A stretch of 64,000 nucleotides of DNA. Source: Bacteroidaceae bacterium (GTDB lineage: Bacteria > Bacteroidota > Bacteroidia > Bacteroidales > Bacteroidaceae). The stretch is taken from positions 19,100 through 83,099 of the forward strand of contig JAEEHP010000105.1 of assembly GCA_016280855.1 (NCBI GenBank), read 5' to 3'. Numbering within the stretch: the first letter of the stretch is position 1; each line of letters begins with the position of its first letter. Shown piece after piece: positions 3,726 through 62,623 of the stretch. Below the pieces are notes generated by a model, which was not told the DNA's origin, ran no database searches, and worked only from the letters and a program-made list of their open reading frames with translations. The translations under genes were made by a program, and so were the position numbers.

Positions 3726-3741
3726 CTATATATTATTCAAC

Positions 3742-3796
3742 TTTCAACTTTAGCTTCACTGACTTTCAACTTTAGCTTCGCTGACTTTCGTCACGA
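3742..3796. repeat. tandem array, about 2.5 x 22 bp (TTTCAACTTTAGCTTCRCTGAC)
   Basis: Units at 3742 and 3764, with a partial unit at 3786. Confidence 0.85.
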
Positions 3797-6126: not shown

Positions 6127-7167
6127 TCATTTTCCCTTTTCCTTTGTGTTCAGCAACCCGCAGGCTGCGTCGATGTCCTGACCGCGCGAGGCACGGATGG
6201 TGCAGCGTACGCCGTGATGTGTCAGGTAGTCGCGGAAGGCGACCATGCGTTCGGGTGAGGCTTCGCGAAGGGTGTCCTCGTCGGGCAGCGTGTGCCATCT
6301 GATCAGGTTCACGCGGCATTCGATGTTGCCGAGCAGCCTTACCAATTCACGTGCGTGGCGGTTCGTGTCGTTCTGTCCGCCGAACATAATGTATTCGAAT
6401 GAGAGGCGGCGCTGTCCTGTCCAGTCGTATTCGTGCAGCAGCTCCAGCATCTCGGTCAACGGATAGCTGCGCTCTGCCGGCATCATCGCTGCCCGCTCCT
6501 CGTGGAAGGGGTTGTGCAGGCTGATGGCCAGATGACAGGGACTCTCGTCGAGGAAACGTCTGAGGCCTTTCTTCAGGCCTACGGTCGAGACGGTGATGCG
6601 CCGTGGACTCCATGCCCATCCGTATTCAGCCGTCAGCAACTCCGTGGTGCGCAGCACGGCATCGAGGTTGTCCATCGGCTCGCCCTGACCCATGAATACG
6701 ATGTTCGTCAGTCGGTCGCGTTCAGGCACGGCGTAGATCTGGTTGAGGATATCCGTGGCGGTGAGGTTGCCCTGGAAGCCTTGACGCCCGGTCATGCAGA
6801 ACTGGCACGCCATCTTGCATCCCACTTGGCAGCTCACGCATAGCGTGCCGCGGTCGTCGTCGGGGATGAACACGGTTTCTACGCGCTGTCCCGATCGGGT
6901 GGGGAAGAGGTACTTGACGGTGCCGTCCTGGCTGTGCTGTTCCGTCAGCGGTGGCATCAGTCCCACTTCATAGCGCTCCGCCAGTCGCTGACGGGCGGCC
7001 ACGCTGATGTTACTCATGCGGCTGATGTCGCCCTGTCCCTTCTGGTAGATCCACTGCGCCAGCTGCTTGGCAGCGAAGGCAGGCATACCCAGCTCTGCCA
7101 CCACGCCTTTCAGCTCGGTGGATGTCATACCCAGCAGCGGTTTCCTATCGTTGATGTTGTCCATCAT
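6127..7167 (-). CDS. rlmN: 23S rRNA/tRNA (adenine-C2)-methyltransferase RlmN (radical SAM)
   Basis: 346 aa, radical SAM CKMACQFC (Cx3Cx2C), and the C-terminal catalytic Cys region DIDAACG. Confidence 0.9.
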   Translation of the reverse strand: MMDNINDRKPLLGMTSTELKGVVAELGMPAFAAKQLAQWIYQKGQGDISRMSNISVAARQRLAERYEVGLMPPLTEQHSQDGTVKYLFPTRSGQRVETVFIPDDDRGTLCVSCQVGCKMACQFCMTGRQGFQGNLTATDILNQIYAVPERDRLTNIVFMGQGEPMDNLDAVLRTTELLTAEYGWAWSPRRITVSTVGLKKGLRRFLDESPCHLAISLHNPFHEERAAMMPAERSYPLTEMLELLHEYDWTGQRRLSFEYIMFGGQNDTNRHARELVRLLGNIECRVNLIRWHTLPDEDTLREASPERMVAFRDYLTHHGVRCTIRASRGQDIDAACGLLNTKEKGK

Positions 7168-7227: not shown

Positions 7228-7315
7228 TACACGTCTATACGTATCGGCTTACACGTCTATACGTATCAGTCTACACGTCTATACGTATCAGCCTACACGT
7301 CCATACGCGTTTCAC
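7228..7315. repeat. tandem array, 4 x 22 bp (TACACGTCTATACGTATCRGYC)
   Basis: Units at 7228, 7250, 7272 and 7294 (the last one degenerate). It lies between a minus-strand TAnnTTTG box (7320-7327) and the rlmN start (7167). Confidence 0.9.
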
Positions 7316-7483: not shown

Positions 7484-7522
7484 CACCCGCAAAAGCCGAT
7501 AAGGCTGGAGCATTTCCAACAT

Positions 7523-7597
7523 GGTGACTATAGTTCAGTTGGTTAGAGCGTCAGATTGTGGTTCTGAATGTCGTGGGTTCGAGTCCCACTAGTCACC
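7523..7597 (+). tRNA. tRNA-His (anticodon GTG)
   Basis: Hand-folded cloverleaf: encoded G-1, acceptor GTGACTA/TAGTCAC, D arm GTTC..GAGC, anticodon stem TCAGA/TCTGA with loop TTGTGGT, T arm GTGGG-TTCGAGT-CCCAC, discriminator C. Confidence 0.9.
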
Positions 7598-11039: not shown

Positions 11040-11068
11040 ACGTTTTCCCGCTCGGCGCTTGCGAATAA

Positions 11069-11102
11069 CTTTCAACTCTCAACTTTCAACTCTCAACTCT
11101 CC
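11069..11102 (+). repeat. heptamer word repeat (TCAACTY)n, G-free, abutting the start codon
   Basis: CTTTCAACTCTCAACTTTCAACTCTCAACTCTCC is followed directly by the ATG at 11103. Confidence 0.9.
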
Positions 11103-17352: not shown

Positions 17353-17442
17353 TACCCTCGGCACCCGATTTCCGGGCTTCGCCGAGGGCATTTTTGTGAT
17401 GCAATGTGTATTTTTGCATGTTATAAAAGATCAGCGAAGCTC

Positions 17443-17530
17443 ACCAAGGTTCTCCAAGCGAAATACCAAGGTTTTCCAGCCGAAACACCAAGGTGTTCCA
17501 AGCGTAACACCAAGGTGTTCCAACTTACCC
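17443..17530. repeat. tandem array, 4 x 22 bp (ACCAAGGTKYTCCARSCGAAAY)
   Basis: The ACCAAGGT anchor occurs at 17443, 17465, 17487 and 17509. Confidence 0.9.
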
Positions 17531-17532
17531 AC

Positions 17533-17664
17533 CTATGTTCTCGAGCTGACTCGCCTATGTATTCGAGCTGACTCGCCTATGTATTCGAGCTGACTCGCCT
17601 ATGCCTTCGAGCTGACTCGCCTATTCCTTCGAGCCGTCCCGGTTATACCTTCGAGCAGTCCCAC
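17533..17664. repeat. tandem array, 6 x 22 bp (CTATGYMTTCGAGCTGACTCGC)
   Basis: The TCGAGC anchor occurs at 17541, 17563, 17585, 17607, 17629 and 17651. The last two units are degenerate. Confidence 0.9.
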
Positions 17665-34418: not shown

Positions 34419-34506
34419 CACACGTATAGACGTAGGAGGTCACACGTATAGACGTAGGAGGTCACACGTATAGACGTAGAGCCTTGCACGTATAGACGTC
34501 GAAGGC
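34419..34506. repeat. tandem array, 4 x 22 bp (CACACGTATAGACGTAGGAGGT)
   Basis: Units at 34419, 34441, 34463 and 34485. The core ACGTATAGACGT is the reverse complement of the core of the 7228-7315 array. Confidence 0.9.
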
Positions 34507-34542: not shown

Positions 34543-34921
34543 CTTCGGGGAAAGCTTATATGGAGCGGGGGAAGTAGGAAAGTAAGAAAGTAGGAAAGTA
34601 GACATTAAGGGTTTTCGGGGGCGCGAATCAGCATCAACAACGGCAGGGTGCAGTAATTTTCAGAGGACGACTAGAAGCAGCATATATCACTATATATTTA
34701 TATGAATAATAATAATTATAAAGGAATAATTATATGGTTATATATAATACTAATATTATAAAGTTATTATTATATAATACTATTATTATTAAATAATTAT
34801 ATAATAAATATTATACTCGTTTCCCTGTTTTGTGTATGTTCCCTTCTGTGGAGCAAAAATGCTTAATGTCTACTTTCCTACTTTCCTACTTTCTTACTTT
34901 TCTGCCTTCAGCTTTCCGAAG
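34543..34921. repeat. composite inverted-repeat element with an extreme A/T core
   Basis: Left arm 34543-34609 (CTTCGGGGAAAGCT...GAAGTAGGAAAGTAAGAAAGTAGGAAAGTAGACATTAAG) pairs with right arm 34862-34921 (CTTAATGTCTACTTTCCTACTTTCCTACTTTCTTACTTT...AGCTTTCCGAAG). The core 34682-34817 is almost pure A/T. Confidence 0.85.
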
Positions 34922-45201: not shown

Positions 45202-45284
45202 CTTTCAACTCTCAACTCTCAAGTTACTTTTATTTTTCACTTTTCACTTTTCACTTTTCACTCTCAACTCTCAACTCCCCTCCC
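45202..45284 (+). repeat. heptamer word repeats (TCAACTC)n and (CACTTTT)n, nearly G-free (one G), abutting the ettA start codon
   Basis: CTTTCAACTCTCAACTCTCAAGTTACTTTTATTTTTCACTTTTCACTTTTCACTTTTCACTCTCAACTCTCAACTCCCCTCCC is followed by the ATG at 45285. Confidence 0.9.
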
Positions 45285-55135: not shown

Positions 55136-55708
55136 ATGCTCATGAAAAAGATTTTTGTTGTGGCCGTCCTGTTGCTCGCAGCCCTGTCGGGGTCGGCACA
55201 GGAGAAGGTAATGACCGTCCAGAAGAAGGACGGGACGAGCGCCGGCACGCGTGTGGCTGACGTGAAGGAGATCAGTTTCCTCGCTGTGGAAGCCGGCAGC
55301 CAGGGCGTGCTGGTGAAGACGCAGAGCGGCGAGACGGCGGCCGTGCGCTTCGAGGCGAATCCCGTCGTGACCGTCGCCAACGGTAAGCTGAACGTCAGGT
55401 CGAGCGATGCCGATGCTATAGCGTTCGAAATCAGCGACGTCGCGGAAATCCTCTTCGGCGATGCTTCCGAAGGCACGGCCATCAAGGCACCCGAAGGGTT
55501 GGCCTTTGTCGTGCAGGAGGGCGGCGCGCTGCTGCGAGGCATACCAAAGGGCGTGAAGCCGCGCATCTATACGATGGACGGCCGCAGTCTGCCGACGCCT
55601 CCGCTGCAAGGTGACGAACTGCGACTGAACCGCGCTACCATGGGCGCTGGCATCTTTATCGTGAAGGTGGGCTCGTTCGCTACGAAGATCAGAGTGGGGA
55701 GAGATTAG
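55136..55708 (+). CDS. small secreted protein with T9SS-like C-terminal tail
   Basis: Signal MLMKKIFVVAVLLLAALSGSAQ and C-terminal IYTMDGRSL...GIFIVKVGSFATKIRVGRD. I recognise no catalytic motif. Confidence 0.55.
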   Translation: MLMKKIFVVAVLLLAALSGSAQEKVMTVQKKDGTSAGTRVADVKEISFLAVEAGSQGVLVKTQSGETAAVRFEANPVVTVANGKLNVRSSDADAIAFEISDVAEILFGDASEGTAIKAPEGLAFVVQEGGALLRGIPKGVKPRIYTMDGRSLPTPPLQGDELRLNRATMGAGIFIVKVGSFATKIRVGRD

Positions 55709-55750
55709 AGATGAGAGATTAGAGATTAAAGATTAGAGATAAGAGATTGC
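55695..55750 (+). repeat. heptamer word repeat (GAGATTA)n, C-free
   Basis: GAGAGATTAGAGATGAGAGATTAGAGATTAAAGATTAGAGATAAGAGATT spans the stop of the upstream gene and the leader of the next gene. Confidence 0.85.
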
Positions 55751-58501: not shown

Positions 58502-58554
58502 CGCTTGTCAACTCGTCAACTTGTCAACTCGTCAACTATCAACTTTCAACTCCC
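58502..58554 (+). repeat. octamer/heptamer word repeat (GTCAACTY)n abutting the start codon
   Basis: CGCTTGTCAACTCGTCAACTTGTCAACTCGTCAACTATCAACTTTCAACTCCC is followed by the ATG at 58555. Confidence 0.9.
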
Positions 58555-58779: not shown

Positions 58780-59388
58780 ATGAAGAAAACAATGACATTT
58801 ATAGCAGCTGCGGCGCTCATGCTGTCGAGCTGCTTCACCACGGGCAACACGGGCAGCTCAACCGGCAACGTGCTGGGAACCTTGTTGGGCAGCATTTTAA
58901 GCAGCGTGTTGCTGGGCGGTTCGACCTATGATCAGGCAGGCCTCCTGGGCAGCTGGAACTATAGCGCCCCGGGTGCTGCCTTCACCACCGAAAAGGCGCT
59001 GACAAAGGCTGGAGGAACGGCTGCCGTGTCCAACCTCACGACGTCGCTGGCAAGCAACTACAGCAATATCGGAATCAATCGCAGCAACACTTCCTTCTCG
59101 TTCCTTAGCGGCAATATGTTCTCGGCTAAGGTAAATGGCATACCTTTCAGCGGAACCTATGCCTACAACCCGCAGAACGGCGAAATCGCCCTCAAGACGG
59201 CTACTGAGACCATCAAGGGCAACGTGTTGAAGACCGAGAAAGGTATGGGTCTGATGTTCGACTCCAAACAGATGGCCAATGTCCTCCAGAAAGAGGGCAA
59301 GGTCAGCAACACGGCCGCTGTGCAGGCCGTCAGCAAGCTCGCCAAGAGTACGGACGGCGCCCGTGTCGGCTTTGTGCTCACAAAATAG
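58780..59388 (+). CDS. DUF4923-like lipoprotein (paralog of 23873..24520)
   Basis: Lipobox MLSSC, a Gly/Ser/Thr linker, and GSWNYSAPGAAFTTEKALTKAGG...GARVGFVLTK, parallel to the other copy. Confidence 0.6.
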   Translation: MKKTMTFIAAAALMLSSCFTTGNTGSSTGNVLGTLLGSILSSVLLGGSTYDQAGLLGSWNYSAPGAAFTTEKALTKAGGTAAVSNLTTSLASNYSNIGINRSNTSFSFLSGNMFSAKVNGIPFSGTYAYNPQNGEIALKTATETIKGNVLKTEKGMGLMFDSKQMANVLQKEGKVSNTAAVQAVSKLAKSTDGARVGFVLTK

Positions 59389-59406
59389 GAAAGCGCTTGA
59401 TTCCCC

Positions 59407-59639
59407 TACTTCGGCTGCAAGCACAGTCGGTACTCGCTGGGCGATAGGCCGAGGTGCTTGGTGCAGTAGCGGCTGAAGTAGGAGAGGGAGGTGAAATGCA
59501 TGCGGTCGGCTATCTGGGTGAGCGACAGACGTTCGTCATCCAGATAGCTTTTTATTATAGGTATGGTGTGGCGGTCGATGTAGGAGGTGACGCTGTGCCC
59601 CGTGACGCGCTTGATGGTGGTATGACTGTATGCAGACCG
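59407..59639 (-). pseudogene. AraC-family regulator, C-terminal HTH fragment only (5'-truncated)
   Basis: Hand translation of the minus strand gives ...TTIKRVTGHSVTSYIDRHTIPIIKSYLDDERLSLTQIADRMHFTSLSYFSRYCTKHLGLSPSEYRLCLQPK*. There is no upstream ORF or start, and the frame ends in the GAACGAAC repeat arm. Confidence 0.7.
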
Positions 59640-59907
59640 AACAGCGAACGAACGAACAGTTGTTTGTGTTCGGTTATGAAGGGCGACTAATTGTTCAATA
59701 ATATATATTATATATAATATATATTATTGGCTTATCCATCCGATGACATTTCTATTTGTTCGCTTCTATTTGTTCGCTGTTCGTTCGTTCGCTGTTCGTT
59801 CGTTCGCTGTTCGGGTAAGGGTGAAGGAGCAGGCGAACATCAAAACGGCAAGCAACGAACGAACGAACAACGAACGGAACAACGAGCAACGAACGAACGG
59901 AACGTGG
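59637..59907. repeat. composite inverted-repeat element with a perfect 34-bp A/T palindrome
   Basis: Arm CCGAACAGCGAACGAACGAACAG (59637-59659) has an exact reverse complement at 59792-59814. The palindrome CAATAATATATATTATATATAATATATATTATTG lies at 59696-59729. A third, same-sense GAACGAAC-rich arm lies at 59851-59904. Confidence 0.9.
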
Positions 59908-60016
59908 TACGGCAATGGCTGCGGCATTCATGGACAATGAAAAGCCCTACCTGAAAAAAGAGCCTCGCGCCGCCCCGCTTTTTTCAAAACCTATTGCAAG
60001 CGCCAAGGAATAGTCG

Positions 60017-60024
60017 TACCTTTG
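60017..60024 (+). promoter_or_regulatory. orphan -7 promoter box (CGTACCTTTGCAAC context) with no downstream ORF
   Basis: Same extended context as the boxes at 7745, 15719 and 62777. The next plus-strand gene is more than 1.2 kb away, beyond a convergent araC gene. Confidence 0.4.
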
Positions 60025-60060
60025 CAACGTTGAAAGAAGAGAGCAGGCAAAGCCCGCTGA

Positions 60061-60094
60061 GCGAATAGACGCAGTCGCGAATGCGAATAGACGC
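60061..60094. repeat. direct repeat, 2 x 22-bp period (GCGAATAGACGC core)
   Basis: GCGAATAGACGC occurs at 60061 and 60083. Confidence 0.8.
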
Positions 60095-60201
60095 TCAAGC
60101 CCGCGCGACTGGTCGCAGTGCGCAATGCGACTGCTCGCTTGAAAGAAAAGCCTCACCCCCAAACCCCTCTCCAAAAGGCGCGCCCTACGCTACTCAACAT
60201 G

Positions 60202-61095
60202 CTATTTCCCCAGGAACTCGCTGGGAGTGAGGCCCGTAGTTCGCTTGAAGAGGCGAGTGAAATGATGGGGATAGTCGAAGCCGAGCAGCTGGGAGGTCTC
60301 GCTGATGTTGTGGCCGTTCATCAGCAGGCTCTTGGCTTGGTTGATGACGTATTTGTGGATATAGCCGATGGCTGTGCCGCCCGTGGTTTTTTTAATGATG
60401 TCGCCGAAGTAACGGGCGGAATAGGCCAGCTCGGAGGCGCAATAGGCTACGGTTGGCAGACCGCGCGTCAGCTGTCGGTTCTCGCGGAAATAGGTCTGCA
60501 GCAGGTTGTGGAAGCGTTTCAGAAGGTCGTTGGCACCTTTGTCCTCTTCGGAGAGCTGGCGCTGGTAGATGCGGTTGCAGTATTCGAGGATTAGGCGCAG
60601 ATAACCGAGCAGGATGTTCCTCAGCGATGGCGAATCGTCGTGTGCGATGAGTTCCTCTCTCATTTGTGCCACCAACTGTGTGATGCTGATCCATTCGTCG
60701 GGCTCCATCCGCAGCGAGTCCGCGAAGAAATACGAGAAGAACTGGTAGCGGTCGATCTGACGTTCCAGCTCATTGCCGTGCAGCAGTTCGGGTGACCACA
60801 TCAGCACCCATCCGCTGAGCGAGATGCGTTCGTCGTTGTCCTCCAGTCCGCCTATCTGTCCCGGCTCCACGGCGATGATGGAGCCGTCGCTCGCCTGCAG
60901 CGTCTTCATGCCGTAGGAGAGATCCTTGGGGAACTGCCGCTGGATGAACAGGCCATAGACGCCGTAGTTGTTCAGGCTATGACGAAAGGGCTGCAGCTCA
61001 TCGTAGTGAATGATGCAGACCAGCGGGTGCAGCACAGGCGCTTCCACGAACCGTGCGTAGTCGTTGGGGTTGTTAACTCTCAGAATCTTCTTCAT
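60202..61095 (-). CDS. AraC family transcriptional regulator
   Basis: 297 aa with an N-terminal cupin-like sensor and a C-terminal double HTH (...AYSARYFGDIIKKTTGGTAIGYI...LGFDYPHHFTRLFKRTTGLTPSEF). Confidence 0.85.
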   Translation of the reverse strand: MKKILRVNNPNDYARFVEAPVLHPLVCIIHYDELQPFRHSLNNYGVYGLFIQRQFPKDLSYGMKTLQASDGSIIAVEPGQIGGLEDNDERISLSGWVLMWSPELLHGNELERQIDRYQFFSYFFADSLRMEPDEWISITQLVAQMREELIAHDDSPSLRNILLGYLRLILEYCNRIYQRQLSEEDKGANDLLKRFHNLLQTYFRENRQLTRGLPTVAYCASELAYSARYFGDIIKKTTGGTAIGYIHKYVINQAKSLLMNGHNISETSQLLGFDYPHHFTRLFKRTTGLTPSEFLGK

Positions 61096-61110: not shown

Positions 61111-61193
61111 AGAATAATTTATGATTGATGAATGATGAATGATGAAGTTTTTGTTTTTCTGAGACGTTTTGATTGCGATTCGGAAATAATCTT

Positions 61194-61201: not shown

Positions 61202-61285
61202 CAGACCGCAACGAGAAAAACAAGCCCTTTGTTATTTCAAAACGGCATTTCAATGTGGAATAAATAATTATATAGCATTGTGAAT

Positions 61286-62623
61286 ATGATGAGATCAGAC
61301 GGAGCGATGGACGAAAAGGAGAGAAAGTTGCAGGAGAAGCTGCGGTTCGCGGGCGAGAAGGTGCCTTCGATGAAGCGCCGGTCGGACCTTAACGACTACT
61401 ACGGGCGACATATCTACATGGTTACTATGGCTGTGGAGGGGCGTCGGTCGTTGCTGGGGCGGCTGGTGGGCGACGTGAAGGCTGGGTGCGATGGGGAGGA
61501 AGCACCGCGTGTGGTGCCGACGGCGTTGGGGCAGGAGGTGACGCGCTGTTGGGAGCTGATTCCTCATTTCCATCCGGAAGTGCGCCTGCTGGCTTTCCAG
61601 CTGATGCCCGACCACCTGCATGGCATCCTTTTTGTGCAAAAGGCTATGGAGGAACATCTGGGACAAGTGATCAGCGGCTTCAAGGCTGGGTGCAATAAGG
61701 CTTACAGGCGGATAGTGGGGGGAGTTGAGGCGGTGCCTCAACATACAAATAATGGTGCACCCCAACCGGCGGGTGCGTCCCAACCGGCAGGTATGCCTCA
61801 ACCAGCGGGTGCGCCTCAACCGGCAGGTGCACCTCGACAGGCAGGTGCGTCTCAACTCGCGTGTGCGCCTCAACCGGCAGGTACGGGGTTGCTTTCAGCG
61901 TATGAAGTGGCACCGCCACTTCCACTCCCTTCCGAGCATCGGCTGAAGAAGGATGACAGGGCCCATGGGCTGCTGTTTGAGCGCGGGTATAATGACCTGA
62001 TATCGAAGAGCTACGATATGCTGCCTCGCCTGACGGCCTACCTGCGCGACAACCCGCGCCGCCTGTGGCTGAAGAGCCGGCACCCAGATCTCTTCCGCCT
62101 GCACCGCCGCACGGAAGCCGCAGGCCTGCTGTTCACCTCCCTCGGCAATCATTTCCTGCTTGCCTGGCCCGAGGGGCAGGAGGTGGAATTGTCGCGTAGC
62201 GCTTCGAGCGCGCAGGTGCAGGGGCGGCTGCTGGCGGCGCTGGCGGCGGCTCACAATGGTGCGGTGACTTACACCGCCGCCATCAGCGAGGGCGAGAAGC
62301 TCATTGCCCGCACACTGCGCGAGCAGGGCTATCCGCTGGTGGTGCTTCTCAATGATGGTTTCCCCAAGGAGGGCTCGCCGCACGAACGCTACTACAAGCC
62401 CGGAGGCGTCTATTTCGAGGCGTGTTGCAGAGGACGGCTCCTGCTGCTGGAACCCGCCGAGCAGTCGTTCCTCGATGCCGGCATACGCGCGGCTGTCGAA
62501 GAGACCCTGCGTCGCAAGGCTGAGGCACGCCATTGGGCCTACACACCCATCCCCGTGACAAGCCAGCGTTATAGGTTCGTGGCGCTCAATGAGATGGCGA
62601 AGCGGTTGGCACAAGGCGAATAA
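61286..62623 (+). CDS. HUH/Y1 (IS200-like, RAYT-like) domain protein with internal (PQPAGA)7 repeat and unassigned C-terminal extension
   Basis: GRHIYMVTMAVEGRR; LMPDHLHGILFV (HUH); ISGFKAGCNKAYRR; LLFERGYNDLISKSYDMLPRLTAYLRDNPRRLW (Tyr motif region). The ORF track starts at GTG 61280; ATGs occur at 61286, 61289 and 61307. Confidence 0.6.
   Translation: MMRSDGAMDEKERKLQEKLRFAGEKVPSMKRRSDLNDYYGRHIYMVTMAVEGRRSLLGRLVGDVKAGCDGEEAPRVVPTALGQEVTRCWELIPHFHPEVRLLAFQLMPDHLHGILFVQKAMEEHLGQVISGFKAGCNKAYRRIVGGVEAVPQHTNNGAPQPAGASQPAGMPQPAGAPQPAGAPRQAGASQLACAPQPAGTGLLSAYEVAPPLPLPSEHRLKKDDRAHGLLFERGYNDLISKSYDMLPRLTAYLRDNPRRLWLKSRHPDLFRLHRRTEAAGLLFTSLGNHFLLAWPEGQEVELSRSASSAQVQGRLLAALAAAHNGAVTYTAAISEGEKLIARTLREQGYPLVVLLNDGFPKEGSPHERYYKPGGVYFEACCRGRLLLLEPAEQSFLDAGIRAAVEETLRRKAEARHWAYTPIPVTSQRYRFVALNEMAKRLAQGE
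61763..61888 (+). repeat. coding tandem repeat, 7 x 18 bp (CAACCGGCRGGTGCRCCT; PQPAGA)
   Basis: Units at 61763, 61781, 61799, 61817, 61835, 61853 and 61871, in frame within the HUH-protein gene. Confidence 0.9.

Follow-up and report, generated by a model that had tools for sequence, protein, structure and literature searches.

The stretch of DNA analysed here (the window: 64,000 nt of contig JAEEHP010000105.1 from the Bacteroidaceae bacterium assembly GCA_016280855.1) contains an intergenic region bounded on its left by a gene for a DUF4923 lipocalin-like protein, which ends at 59388, and on its right by an intact gene for a 297-amino-acid (aa) AraC-type regulator on the minus strand (60202–61095), a protein for which we found no exact database record. 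Within this region lies an inverted-repeat element without coding capacity (59637–59814), accompanied by a third, degenerate arm and abutting a truncated gene of the AraC family (Table 1). A first-pass annotation, made from the letters of the sequence alone, had described a composite of exact 23-nt inverted arms, a perfect 34-bp A/T palindrome and a third arm; all of these are present, to an extent far beyond chance, and the composite architecture is real. The left arm, CCGAACAGCGAACGAACGAACAG (59637–59659), has its exact reverse complement at 59792–59814 and a further inverted copy, with one mismatch, at 59777–59799, while none of 100 dinucleotide-preserving shuffles yielded such arm matches. 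The right arm consists of 2.8 copies of the 15-nt unit GTTCGCTGTTCGTTC, and the palindrome (59696–59729) is formed by two perfectly matching halves of 17 nt that are A/T throughout save for the terminal C/G. The sequence GAACGAACGAAC, at one mismatch or fewer, occurs at six sites in the 64-kb window against an expectation of 0.4, and all six fall within 59646–59898. The third arm shows 72–84% complementarity to the right arm, and when the region 59630–59910 was folded as single-stranded DNA the two strands gave −58.7 and −57.1 kcal/mol (z against shuffles = −6.9 and −7.1), the right arm being predicted to pair with either the left arm or the third arm. A search of the region against Rfam 15 returned no family above its gathering threshold. 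The only models matched were those of plant and animal microRNAs (22–39 bits against thresholds of 95–117), as happens because the region is a long hairpin, and a known RNA family was accordingly ruled out.

Table 1. Parts of the intergenic region between the DUF4923 and AraC genes, in window positions
Feature	Position	Strand	Remarks
Strain-variable block, ~812 bp, from the DUF4923 stop codon to the 3' end of the 297-aa AraC gene	59389..60200		Contains every part listed below
5'-truncated pseudogene of an AraC-family helix-turn-helix regulator	59406..59640	-	78 codons and a stop; lacks a start codon
Left terminal inverted repeat (arm)	59637..59659	+	Also the outer limit of the module common to the window and locus L020
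Spacer A (TTGTTTGTGTTCGG...)	59660..59695	+	Non-complementary to spacer B; equivalent of the family spacer TTTTGTGTGAG...
Perfect 34-bp A/T palindrome, hypervariable centre of the element	59696..59729		34 (perfect), 43 (imperfect) or 48 bp (perfect) among strains
Spacer B, holding TTATCCATC and part of a 14-nt tandem repeat	59730..59771	+	TTCTATTTGTTCGC x2.1 at 59750-59778
Right terminal inverted repeat, 15-nt unit x2.8	59772..59814	-	One unit fewer in other strains
Third, degenerate arm (AACG/GAAC repeats), allowing alternative hairpins	59851..59904	+	Copy number differs among strains
Terminator-like short hairpin, GC-rich, with an A run on one side and a T run on the other	59959..59976	-	Conserved in L020
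Bacteroidetes-type promoter-like site	59994..60024	+	TTG at 59994-59996, 20 nt, TACCTTTG at 60017-60024; read by eye; conserved in L020
Array with 22-nt spacing, 3' of the promoter-like site	60061..60138	+	GCGAATAGACGC x2, GCGACTGGTCGC-like x2

The element is one of many, and further copies of its arms and core were found in several genome bins and in metagenome contigs. A 20-mer from the arm is present on eight contigs in five rumen Bacteroidales genome bins (three contigs in RGIG8159 and two in RGIG2783); additional matches to it in Chloroflexia and Alphaproteobacteria were dismissed as chance similarity of low-complexity sequence. A 22-mer common to several copies was found on 55 rumen metagenome contigs, 14 of which carry it as two exact inverted copies, spaced ~100–125 nt apart in 13 cases and 339 nt apart in the other (L041; comparison loci are designated by L and a number). 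About 17 of the 55 matches lie near the end of a contig, as expected for multicopy or palindromic DNA. We extracted 42 full elements, with inverted repeats of 13–33 bp and a length of 112–215 bp, except for two near 380 bp in which a foreign repeat is nested; a typical member of the family measures ~140 bp. Longer units bounded by arms contain either a nested foreign repeat (L019 and L041) or island genes without a recognisable transposase or integrase. The foreign repeat, ~230 bp long and with 21-bp terminal inverted repeats (TTCTGCGTCAATTTAGGTGGT), is nested in a GAAC-type element at 7280–7620 of L019 and 1880–2190 of L041.

The family has a common layout, in which an arm (consensus GCGAACGAACGAACAGTTGAACAGTTT, built of GAAC/GAACAG units) is followed by spacer A (e.g. 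TTGTGTGAGAAAATGTGCATAGAGA), a palindrome made of A/T only (TTTATTATTATATAT...ATATAATAATAAA), spacer B (e.g. AGTTTAAGCGAACGCAAAACGG) and the inverted arm. The spacers are both conserved and are not complementary to one another, and hardly any variation is seen in the arms of 23 representative copies. For the longest perfect palindrome at the centre the median length is 26 nt, rising to 30–56 nt in most copies when two mismatches are allowed, whereas in shuffled interiors the longest palindrome averaged 8 nt and never exceeded 20. A profile hidden Markov model of 33 copies identified a single site in the window, at 59638–59795, with E = 9.5e-14 and 8.9e-13 on the two strands. Clustering of the flanks placed the copies in roughly two dozen contexts, all of them intergenic, with convergent, divergent and tandem gene orientations alike; the neighbours of some copies are housekeeping genes (his operon, kbl/tdh and purM, as read from the translation starts of open reading frames, ORFs). 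Annotated phage and plasmid collections gave no match to the family, and an origin from phages or plasmids was rejected on that ground, the sole match on a viral contig being a coding low-complexity stretch.

Comparison of copies within orthologous sets located most of the variation at the centre of the element. Variable columns made up 25.6% of the palindrome, 9.4% of the rest of the element and 12.1% of the flanks, and in the two cleanest orthologous sets all of the variation within the element fell in the palindrome centre. Many of the palindrome variants nevertheless stay perfect palindromes; slippage of self-symmetric units could preserve this perfection, and a special mechanism need not be invoked. 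In L021 both arms have changed jointly to GTACAGTATAACAG-type units while the neighbouring sequence is still homologous to that of L075, and this joint change implies that some process, be it selection for pairing or conversion from one arm to the other, maintains their likeness. The orientation of the element is constant within eight orthologous sets of 2–6 copies, including the six copies at the window locus and sets of six, five and three elsewhere. The one inversion, among paralogous copies, is that of L058, where the interior, judged against L027, L061, L073, L075 and L028, is reversed with respect to both flanks. We also considered, from the comparison of L058 with L027, whether the arms might be a new inverted duplication of the local flank; this was rejected, L027 resembling a deletion derivative that has kept the start of the core.

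The reading frame adjoining the left arm, which had been taken for a fragment of an AraC-type helix-turn-helix (HTH) regulator, is indeed one, matching Pfam HTH_18 with E = 9e-14 over profile positions 12–78 of 80. On the minus strand the frame runs over 59406–59705, with its stop codon at 59406–59408 and without a start codon, and it remains open through the left arm into the A/T core; homology to relatives starts at ..AYSHTTIKRVTG.. (..AYSHTTIKRV..), a few bases from the outer end of the left arm. The coincidence of that outer end with the point at which homology of the AraC-family frame stops, on which the first-pass annotation had built its argument, is thus confirmed. The same annotation had put the loss at about 220 N-terminal codons, and a figure of about 200 would be roughly right if the ancestral protein had ~275 aa. 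We infer this length from L081, where a 153-aa N-terminal ORF with a weak AraC_binding match is followed by an in-frame TAA stop and a 102-aa HTH part, and from L088, where a full-length gene as in L081 is broken by a frameshift. The 75-aa conserved part has 113 homologues in the database, none of them longer than 132 aa and none an intact copy of this regulator. These short homologues had hinted at a natively short HTH protein, an explanation that we rejected as the whole story since L081 and L088 show a gene of ~275 aa.

Loss of this gene is not confined to loci with the element. The AraC-family gene is decaying in many independent ways, many of them without any involvement of the element: L077 has an in-frame deletion by which codons 1–10 are fused with the HTH domain, and has a promoter of its own, and in L084 and L086 the gene is cut at other points with no palindromic element close by. 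The regulator is often found beside flavodoxin or cyclophilin-like genes and has been inactivated in many rumen lineages, the routes including nonsense mutation, frameshift, in-frame deletion of the ligand domain and truncation (L077, L081, L084, L086, L088 and the window). L078, which we considered as a split and inverted AraC gene, was rejected, the gene there being a cupin gene with its own promoter.

The copy most similar to the window element is that of L020 (genome bin UBA4372), which is 72% identical over 180 nt and has other neighbouring genes. The alignment of the two loci extends in the window from 59637 to ~60040 and takes in the arm, core, right arm, third arm, terminator-like hairpin and promoter. 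It ends sharply at the outer end of the arm, exactly where the AraC fragment starts in the window, and this boundary is our best evidence for the movement or recombination of a module ending in this arm into the AraC-family gene. The promoter-like site of the module (59994–60024), which may be compared with the Bacteroides promoter consensus TTTG...TAnnTTTG, faces the 3' end of the 297-aa AraC gene. An orphan promoter-like site with repeat-rich sequence facing the 3' end of a convergent gene is present both in the window (59994–60140, plus strand) and in L020 (3230–3420), where the convergent gene, a 741-aa ORF, is one that we take to encode a GH92 glycosidase. Such a site could be the source of an antisense or small RNA; the region 59994–60140 has no match in Rfam.

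Strain variation at the locus was assessed on contigs encoding an identical DUF4923 protein, which fall into two classes. In all six contigs of the first class that are long enough (L002, L003, L005, L006, L007 and L010) the AraC fragment and the element are both present, the latter in constant orientation; in L008 and L009 the block is present in part and the contig ends before the element is reached. In L001 and L004 the whole 812-bp block is absent, the fragment with it, and 24 unrelated nt separate the DUF4923 and AraC genes; seven more contigs were listed as L001-like. The carriers have palindromes of 34 bp (perfect), 43 bp (40 of 43 positions) or 48 bp (perfect), the 15-nt arm unit is present in one or two copies, and the third arm has an extra unit in L002 and L003. 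To the right of 60138 the sequences of L006 and L007 are wholly diverged. The L004 haplotype differs beyond the block as well: its AraC gene is ~80% identical at the 3' end and the product of the next gene 88% identical in amino-acid sequence, and given these diverged flanks the polymorphism looks like allelic replacement rather than a clean insertion. No relative with the fragment and without the element was found at this locus, an outcome in favour of the earlier reading; nor was there at this locus an intact AraC paralogue by which the borders of an insertion could be set, the strains carrying fragment and element or neither.

The first-pass annotation had also reported that the architecture recurs at 34543–34921 with different arms. 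The design is confirmed there: arms of 44 nt with 91% complementarity, made of 8-nt GGAAAGTA-type units, enclose a 140-bp A/T island, and a 22-nt array lies alongside. The likeness does not extend to sequence kinship, the nhmmer comparison with the GAAC-family profile giving E = 1.5, and this second element is a stable feature of the species: it has the same orientation in all related contigs that are long enough, including a contig without the block at 59.6 kb, and differs among strains by small indels only, one of them of a single 22-nt unit. It is situated between convergent DUF3127 and FHA-domain genes, ~1 kb from dnaN; two contigs end inside this intergenic region. A further element with inverted arms and an A/T palindrome was found ~100 nt from a GAAC-type copy in L058 (2170–2345) and L033 (110–290). 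Its arms are CGTCCCAT repeats ending in CATTAAG, of the same kind as those of the 34.5-kb element, and L027 is without most of it. The 34.5-kb element and the L058/L033 pair show that several arm families use one design. A second family defined by CATTAAG...CTTAATG was considered and dropped, just two loci having been found.

In another group of loci a single arm, together with the first dozen bases of spacer A, is situated at the 3' end of a gene of ~755 aa that is followed by a DUF5675 gene. The ~755-aa protein matches BT4734-like_N in one variant (E = 1e-11) and PrimPol (E = 5e-4), and no helicase domain was detected in it. The single arm is identical at the nucleotide level in at least nine variants of the island, whose proteins are 65–100% identical. 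In all four of the islands with enough sequence (L021, L031, L034 and L060+L075) a full element lies 3–8 kb upstream of the gene, and the order is arrays (weak in L034), full element, cargo, primase-like gene, single arm and DUF5675 gene, the cargo consisting of restriction-modification or other genes. No integrase was recognised in these primase-type islands, and the window has no such island, as a tblastn search of it gave no match. The island family is found also in L032, L038, L040, L047, L049 and L071, with variable restriction-modification or ATPase cargo and with a Rha/ANT antirepressor in L034. At one end of the islands the palindromic element has beside it arrays of ~22-nt GTTGAC-containing repeats.

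We interpret 59637–59814 and its third arm as one copy of a hairpin-forming, dispersed non-coding repeat of rumen Prevotellaceae and related Bacteroidales, similar in kind to miniature transposable elements with inverted repeats (MITEs) or repetitive extragenic palindromic (REP) sequences, an interpretation in which we place about as much belief as doubt. What leads us to it is the small size, lack of coding sequence, inverted-repeat borders and many, strictly intergenic copies of the repeat, together with the conservation of interiors across unrelated flanks and the sharp-bordered module common to two genomes. The window copy belongs to the family, the family is dispersed and polymorphic, and the breakpoints of module and pseudogene coincide. 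Our working model is that the repeat would be spread to many loci by a trans-acting agent, or through recombination with copies borne on mobile islands, and that it would extrude in vivo as a hairpin or cruciform, presumably without serving the host. Replication slippage and hairpin-associated errors would then generate the hypervariable centre and the differences in arm-unit number while the arms are kept alike, and rare recombination between arms would produce an inverted interior. At the window locus the element may have arrived within a ~0.4-kb module that also includes the third arm, the terminator-like hairpin and an outward promoter; this module's outer arm end coincides with the breakpoint of the AraC pseudogene, and the 0.8-kb block now segregates among strains. 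The earlier conclusion that past mobility or recombination destroyed a gene accordingly stands in part: the breakpoints coincide, and the element is neither unique nor monomorphic, since many copies and polymorphism were found, whereas mobility is suggested rather than demonstrated, the polymorphism at the locus being a 0.8-kb block with diverged flanks and not a clean insertion with a target duplication.

Several observations weigh against a dispersed, MITE-like repeat. No consistent target-site duplication was found at the borders of the 42 elements, and ~636 kb of loci contained no autonomous partner with matching ends and a transposase. The outer limit of the inverted repeat is ragged, varying from 13 to 33 bp. 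An exact empty site was not seen, as the contigs without the element miss the whole 812-bp block and have diverged flanks. Copy number per genome was taken from metagenome-assembled bins and contigs rather than from a closed genome. Arrays of the 22-nt GTTGAC-containing repeat lie beside ~18 of the 42 copies. Finally, the strong conservation of the arms suggests that a protein may recognise them, and the island pattern of a full element combined with a conserved single arm suggests a cis-acting function rather than junk DNA.

If that function were replication, the element would be an origin-like cis-acting site of the primase-type islands, with the arms and 22-nt arrays as iterons for the ~755-aa protein, the A/T palindrome as the unwinding element and the solo copies as relics or decoys. 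We judge this unlikely, though not so unlikely as to be passed over, for the order of parts is shared by four of four islands, the single arm 3' of the gene is identical in at least nine variants despite the range of protein identity, ~18 of 42 elements lie beside GTTGAC arrays with ~22-nt spacing, and arms flank the A/T palindrome. The origin of Staphylococcus aureus pathogenicity islands (SaPI) and the ori/crr of phage P4 have repeats around an A/T-rich segment beside a primase-helicase gene, and the P4 iteron, which we take to be TGTTCACC, resembles TGTTCAAC of these arms. Like such iteron origins, the element has repeats on both sides of an A/T-rich segment, and related loci have a primase-type gene with a second set of repeats 3' of it. 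In contrast to those origins, however, many copies stand alone in intergenic DNA between housekeeping genes, without arrays, and the window has no island; in L021 the arms of the distal element have diverged and the gene-side arm has not, which is unexpected if one protein binds both; and the ~755-aa protein is weakly typed. A broader form of the idea, to which we give low credence, is that GAAC-armed units and 22-nt arrays would be cis sites for replication or recombination of an undescribed family of primase-type islands in rumen Prevotellaceae, several of them with restriction-modification cargo, that solo copies would be functional satellites or relics, and that hairpin extrusion would turn them into rearrangement hotspots, which would explain both the truncated regulator and the variable block. 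A chromosomal origin of the oriC type, with a DnaA box beside an unwinding element, is a far weaker proposition and one that we consider highly improbable. It would draw on the A/T-rich palindrome next to TTATCCATC and on the proximity of the other A/T island to dnaN, yet TTATCCATC, which the first-pass annotation had called DnaA-box-like, departs from the consensus in two places and has no conserved counterpart in L020, and that description has to be abandoned. Near-consensus DnaA boxes are rarer than expected in the window (3 against 8.2), with none near either element, and there is no GC-skew switch at either site; presence or absence among strains and the many copies effectively refute the oriC reading.

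The remaining two accounts concern switching and local origin, and we regard each as improbable. A recombinase acting at the arms might flip the interior, or larger segments between arms, and so alter transcription of neighbouring genes. In keeping with such an invertible switch (inverton), perfect inverted repeats of 23–27 bp lie ~100–130 bp apart, within the size range of Bacteroidales invertons, and Mpi-type invertons likewise have inverted repeats around a segment of 100–200 bp; the interior of L058 is inverted with respect to five related copies; and there is partial overlap of words, the arms containing CGTTCGT (as in the Mpi-type ARACGTTCGT) and GTTCGTT (as in GTTCGTTTAA of B. intestinalis). 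Orientation, however, is uniform within the orthologous sets, six copies at the locus and six, five and three elsewhere. Unlike Mpi-type invertons, the element has no internal promoter, as direct reading of the interior in the window and in the consensus of the family revealed no TAnnTTTG, and a sigma-70-type site is absent as well; the arms do not contain the Mpi consensus in full, its one exact match nearby (59527–59536) being single and inside the pseudogene; and no recombinase gene is adjacent. The element might instead be an immobile product of the tandem and inverted intergenic duplication to which this lineage is prone, resembling other copies through shared ancestry or low-complexity convergence. 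The window is rich in intergenic tandem arrays with periods of 7–8 and 22 nt, the arms, too, are tandem repeats, in numbers that vary among strains, and the 34.5-kb element shares the architecture while its arms are unrelated, all of which would suit a local origin. Against it, spacers of 20–30 nt and arms of 27 nt, not of low complexity throughout, are conserved across unrelated flanks and bins, and the 0.4-kb module common to the window and L020 has a sharp boundary.

Returning to the dispersed repeat, we compared it with described systems. Correia elements of Neisseria (also known as NEMIS or CREE) are 100–170 bp long with ~26-bp terminal inverted repeats, and no enzyme is known to mobilise them. 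They and other MITEs resemble the present family in being small and non-coding, in having terminal inverted repeats and in occurring as many intergenic, hairpin-forming copies, often near promoters. The present family differs in lacking TA or any other consistent target duplication and in having ends of tandem GAAC/GAACAG units of variable copy number; it differs from Correia elements in particular in that its centre is a hypervariable A/T-only palindrome and not an IHF site, and no parent transposon was found. Set against the general definition of MITEs (PMC4596501), it has the inverted repeats, the small size, the absence of coding sequence and the multiple intergenic copies, but not the fixed target duplication and the autonomous relative. 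BrickBuilt, a minisatellite-MITE of Porphyromonas gingivalis whose 23-nt bricks are enclosed by a leader and a tail and whose ends are IS5-like (GAGACCTTTGCA), shares with it an origin in Bacteroidetes, strictly intergenic placement, 22–23-nt tandem repeats combined with small inverted ends, limited host range and association with promoters (PMC4596501). Here, by contrast, the arrays are outside the inverted-repeat unit, an A/T palindrome forms the core, and the sequence shows no similarity to that of BrickBuilt. The closest described elements are thus the Correia-type MITEs and, within the Bacteroidetes, BrickBuilt.

REP sequences and their paired form (REPINs), which are associated with REP-associated tyrosine transposases (RAYTs), are similarly short, palindromic, intergenic and dispersed within one lineage; single arms of the present family, unlike theirs, are tandem GAAC units and not hairpins. 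An ORF of 447 aa with a HUH-like motif, LMPDHLHGILFV, is located on the plus strand at 61280–62623, 1.4 kb from the element, and matches the NCBIfam model REP_Tyr_transpos with E = 1e-4 and 21 bits, against a cut-off of 80; it has no match in Pfam or among Protein Data Bank structures. It includes an 18-nt tandem repeat (61754–61882) encoding PQPAGA-type repeats, is split into ORFs of 146 and 201 aa in L002 and L003, and is 432 aa long in L004. A link with RAYTs was rejected: the gene scores below the cut-off, is present in the element-free L004, is not flanked by arms and was not found near other copies.

The first-pass annotation had not recognised the element as a MITE, REP or insertion sequence family, and our searches by sequence word and by topic likewise found no published description of the family, the sequence words leading to nothing of relevance except the Mpi consensus. 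An automated census has listed tens of thousands of MITEs in Bacteroidota (PMC11602168), and the GAAC-armed family may be present, unnamed, in such lists. It is distinguished by a hypervariable and often perfect A/T palindrome core, by tandem-unit arms that are kept alike and by the link to primase-type islands and 22-nt arrays; in other respects it belongs to a well-known type of selfish or structural DNA and is not a new mechanism. In practical terms, this high-copy, lineage-specific repeat breaks metagenome assemblies, with about a third of matches at contig ends, and marks structural differences among closely related strains of rumen Prevotella, while in the annotation of the window an orphan HTH fragment and an orphan promoter are accounted for by the element and its module. 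The copies form a natural series of long perfect A/T palindromes with fast-changing centres and symmetry that is often kept, and should be useful in studies of how bacteria tolerate and remodel palindromes. If the link to islands is functional, the repeat would serve as origin or recognition site for a class of mobile elements, not yet studied, in one of the most abundant rumen lineages.

Intergenic arrays with a 22-nt period are found at five places in the window (3740–3789, 7228–7307, 17442–17656, 34419–34499 and 60061–60138). Those at 7228 (in minus-strand sense) and 34419 have a common core, ACGTATAGACGT, while that at 60061 has GCGAATAGACGC; the array at 34419 has 3.7 or 2.7 copies depending on the strain. 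The array at 7228 has a TAnnTTTG promoter-like site on one side and the start of the gene at 7167 on the other, and would therefore be a transcribed leader. A tRNA-like sequence read by eye at 7521–7597 on the plus strand, probably tRNA-His (anticodon GTG), also lies 3' of a TAnnTTTG promoter-like site. Tandem repeats of 7–8 nt are located at 11067–11101, 45226–45262, 55700–55748, 58507–58552 and 61121–61146, several of them just upstream of start codons. Most are without G or without C (AACTCTC, ACTTTTC, AGAGATT and ATGAATG), whereas GTCAACTC has all four bases, and it is our speculation that these repeats might provide leaders free of structure, the lineage being one that makes no use of Shine-Dalgarno sites.

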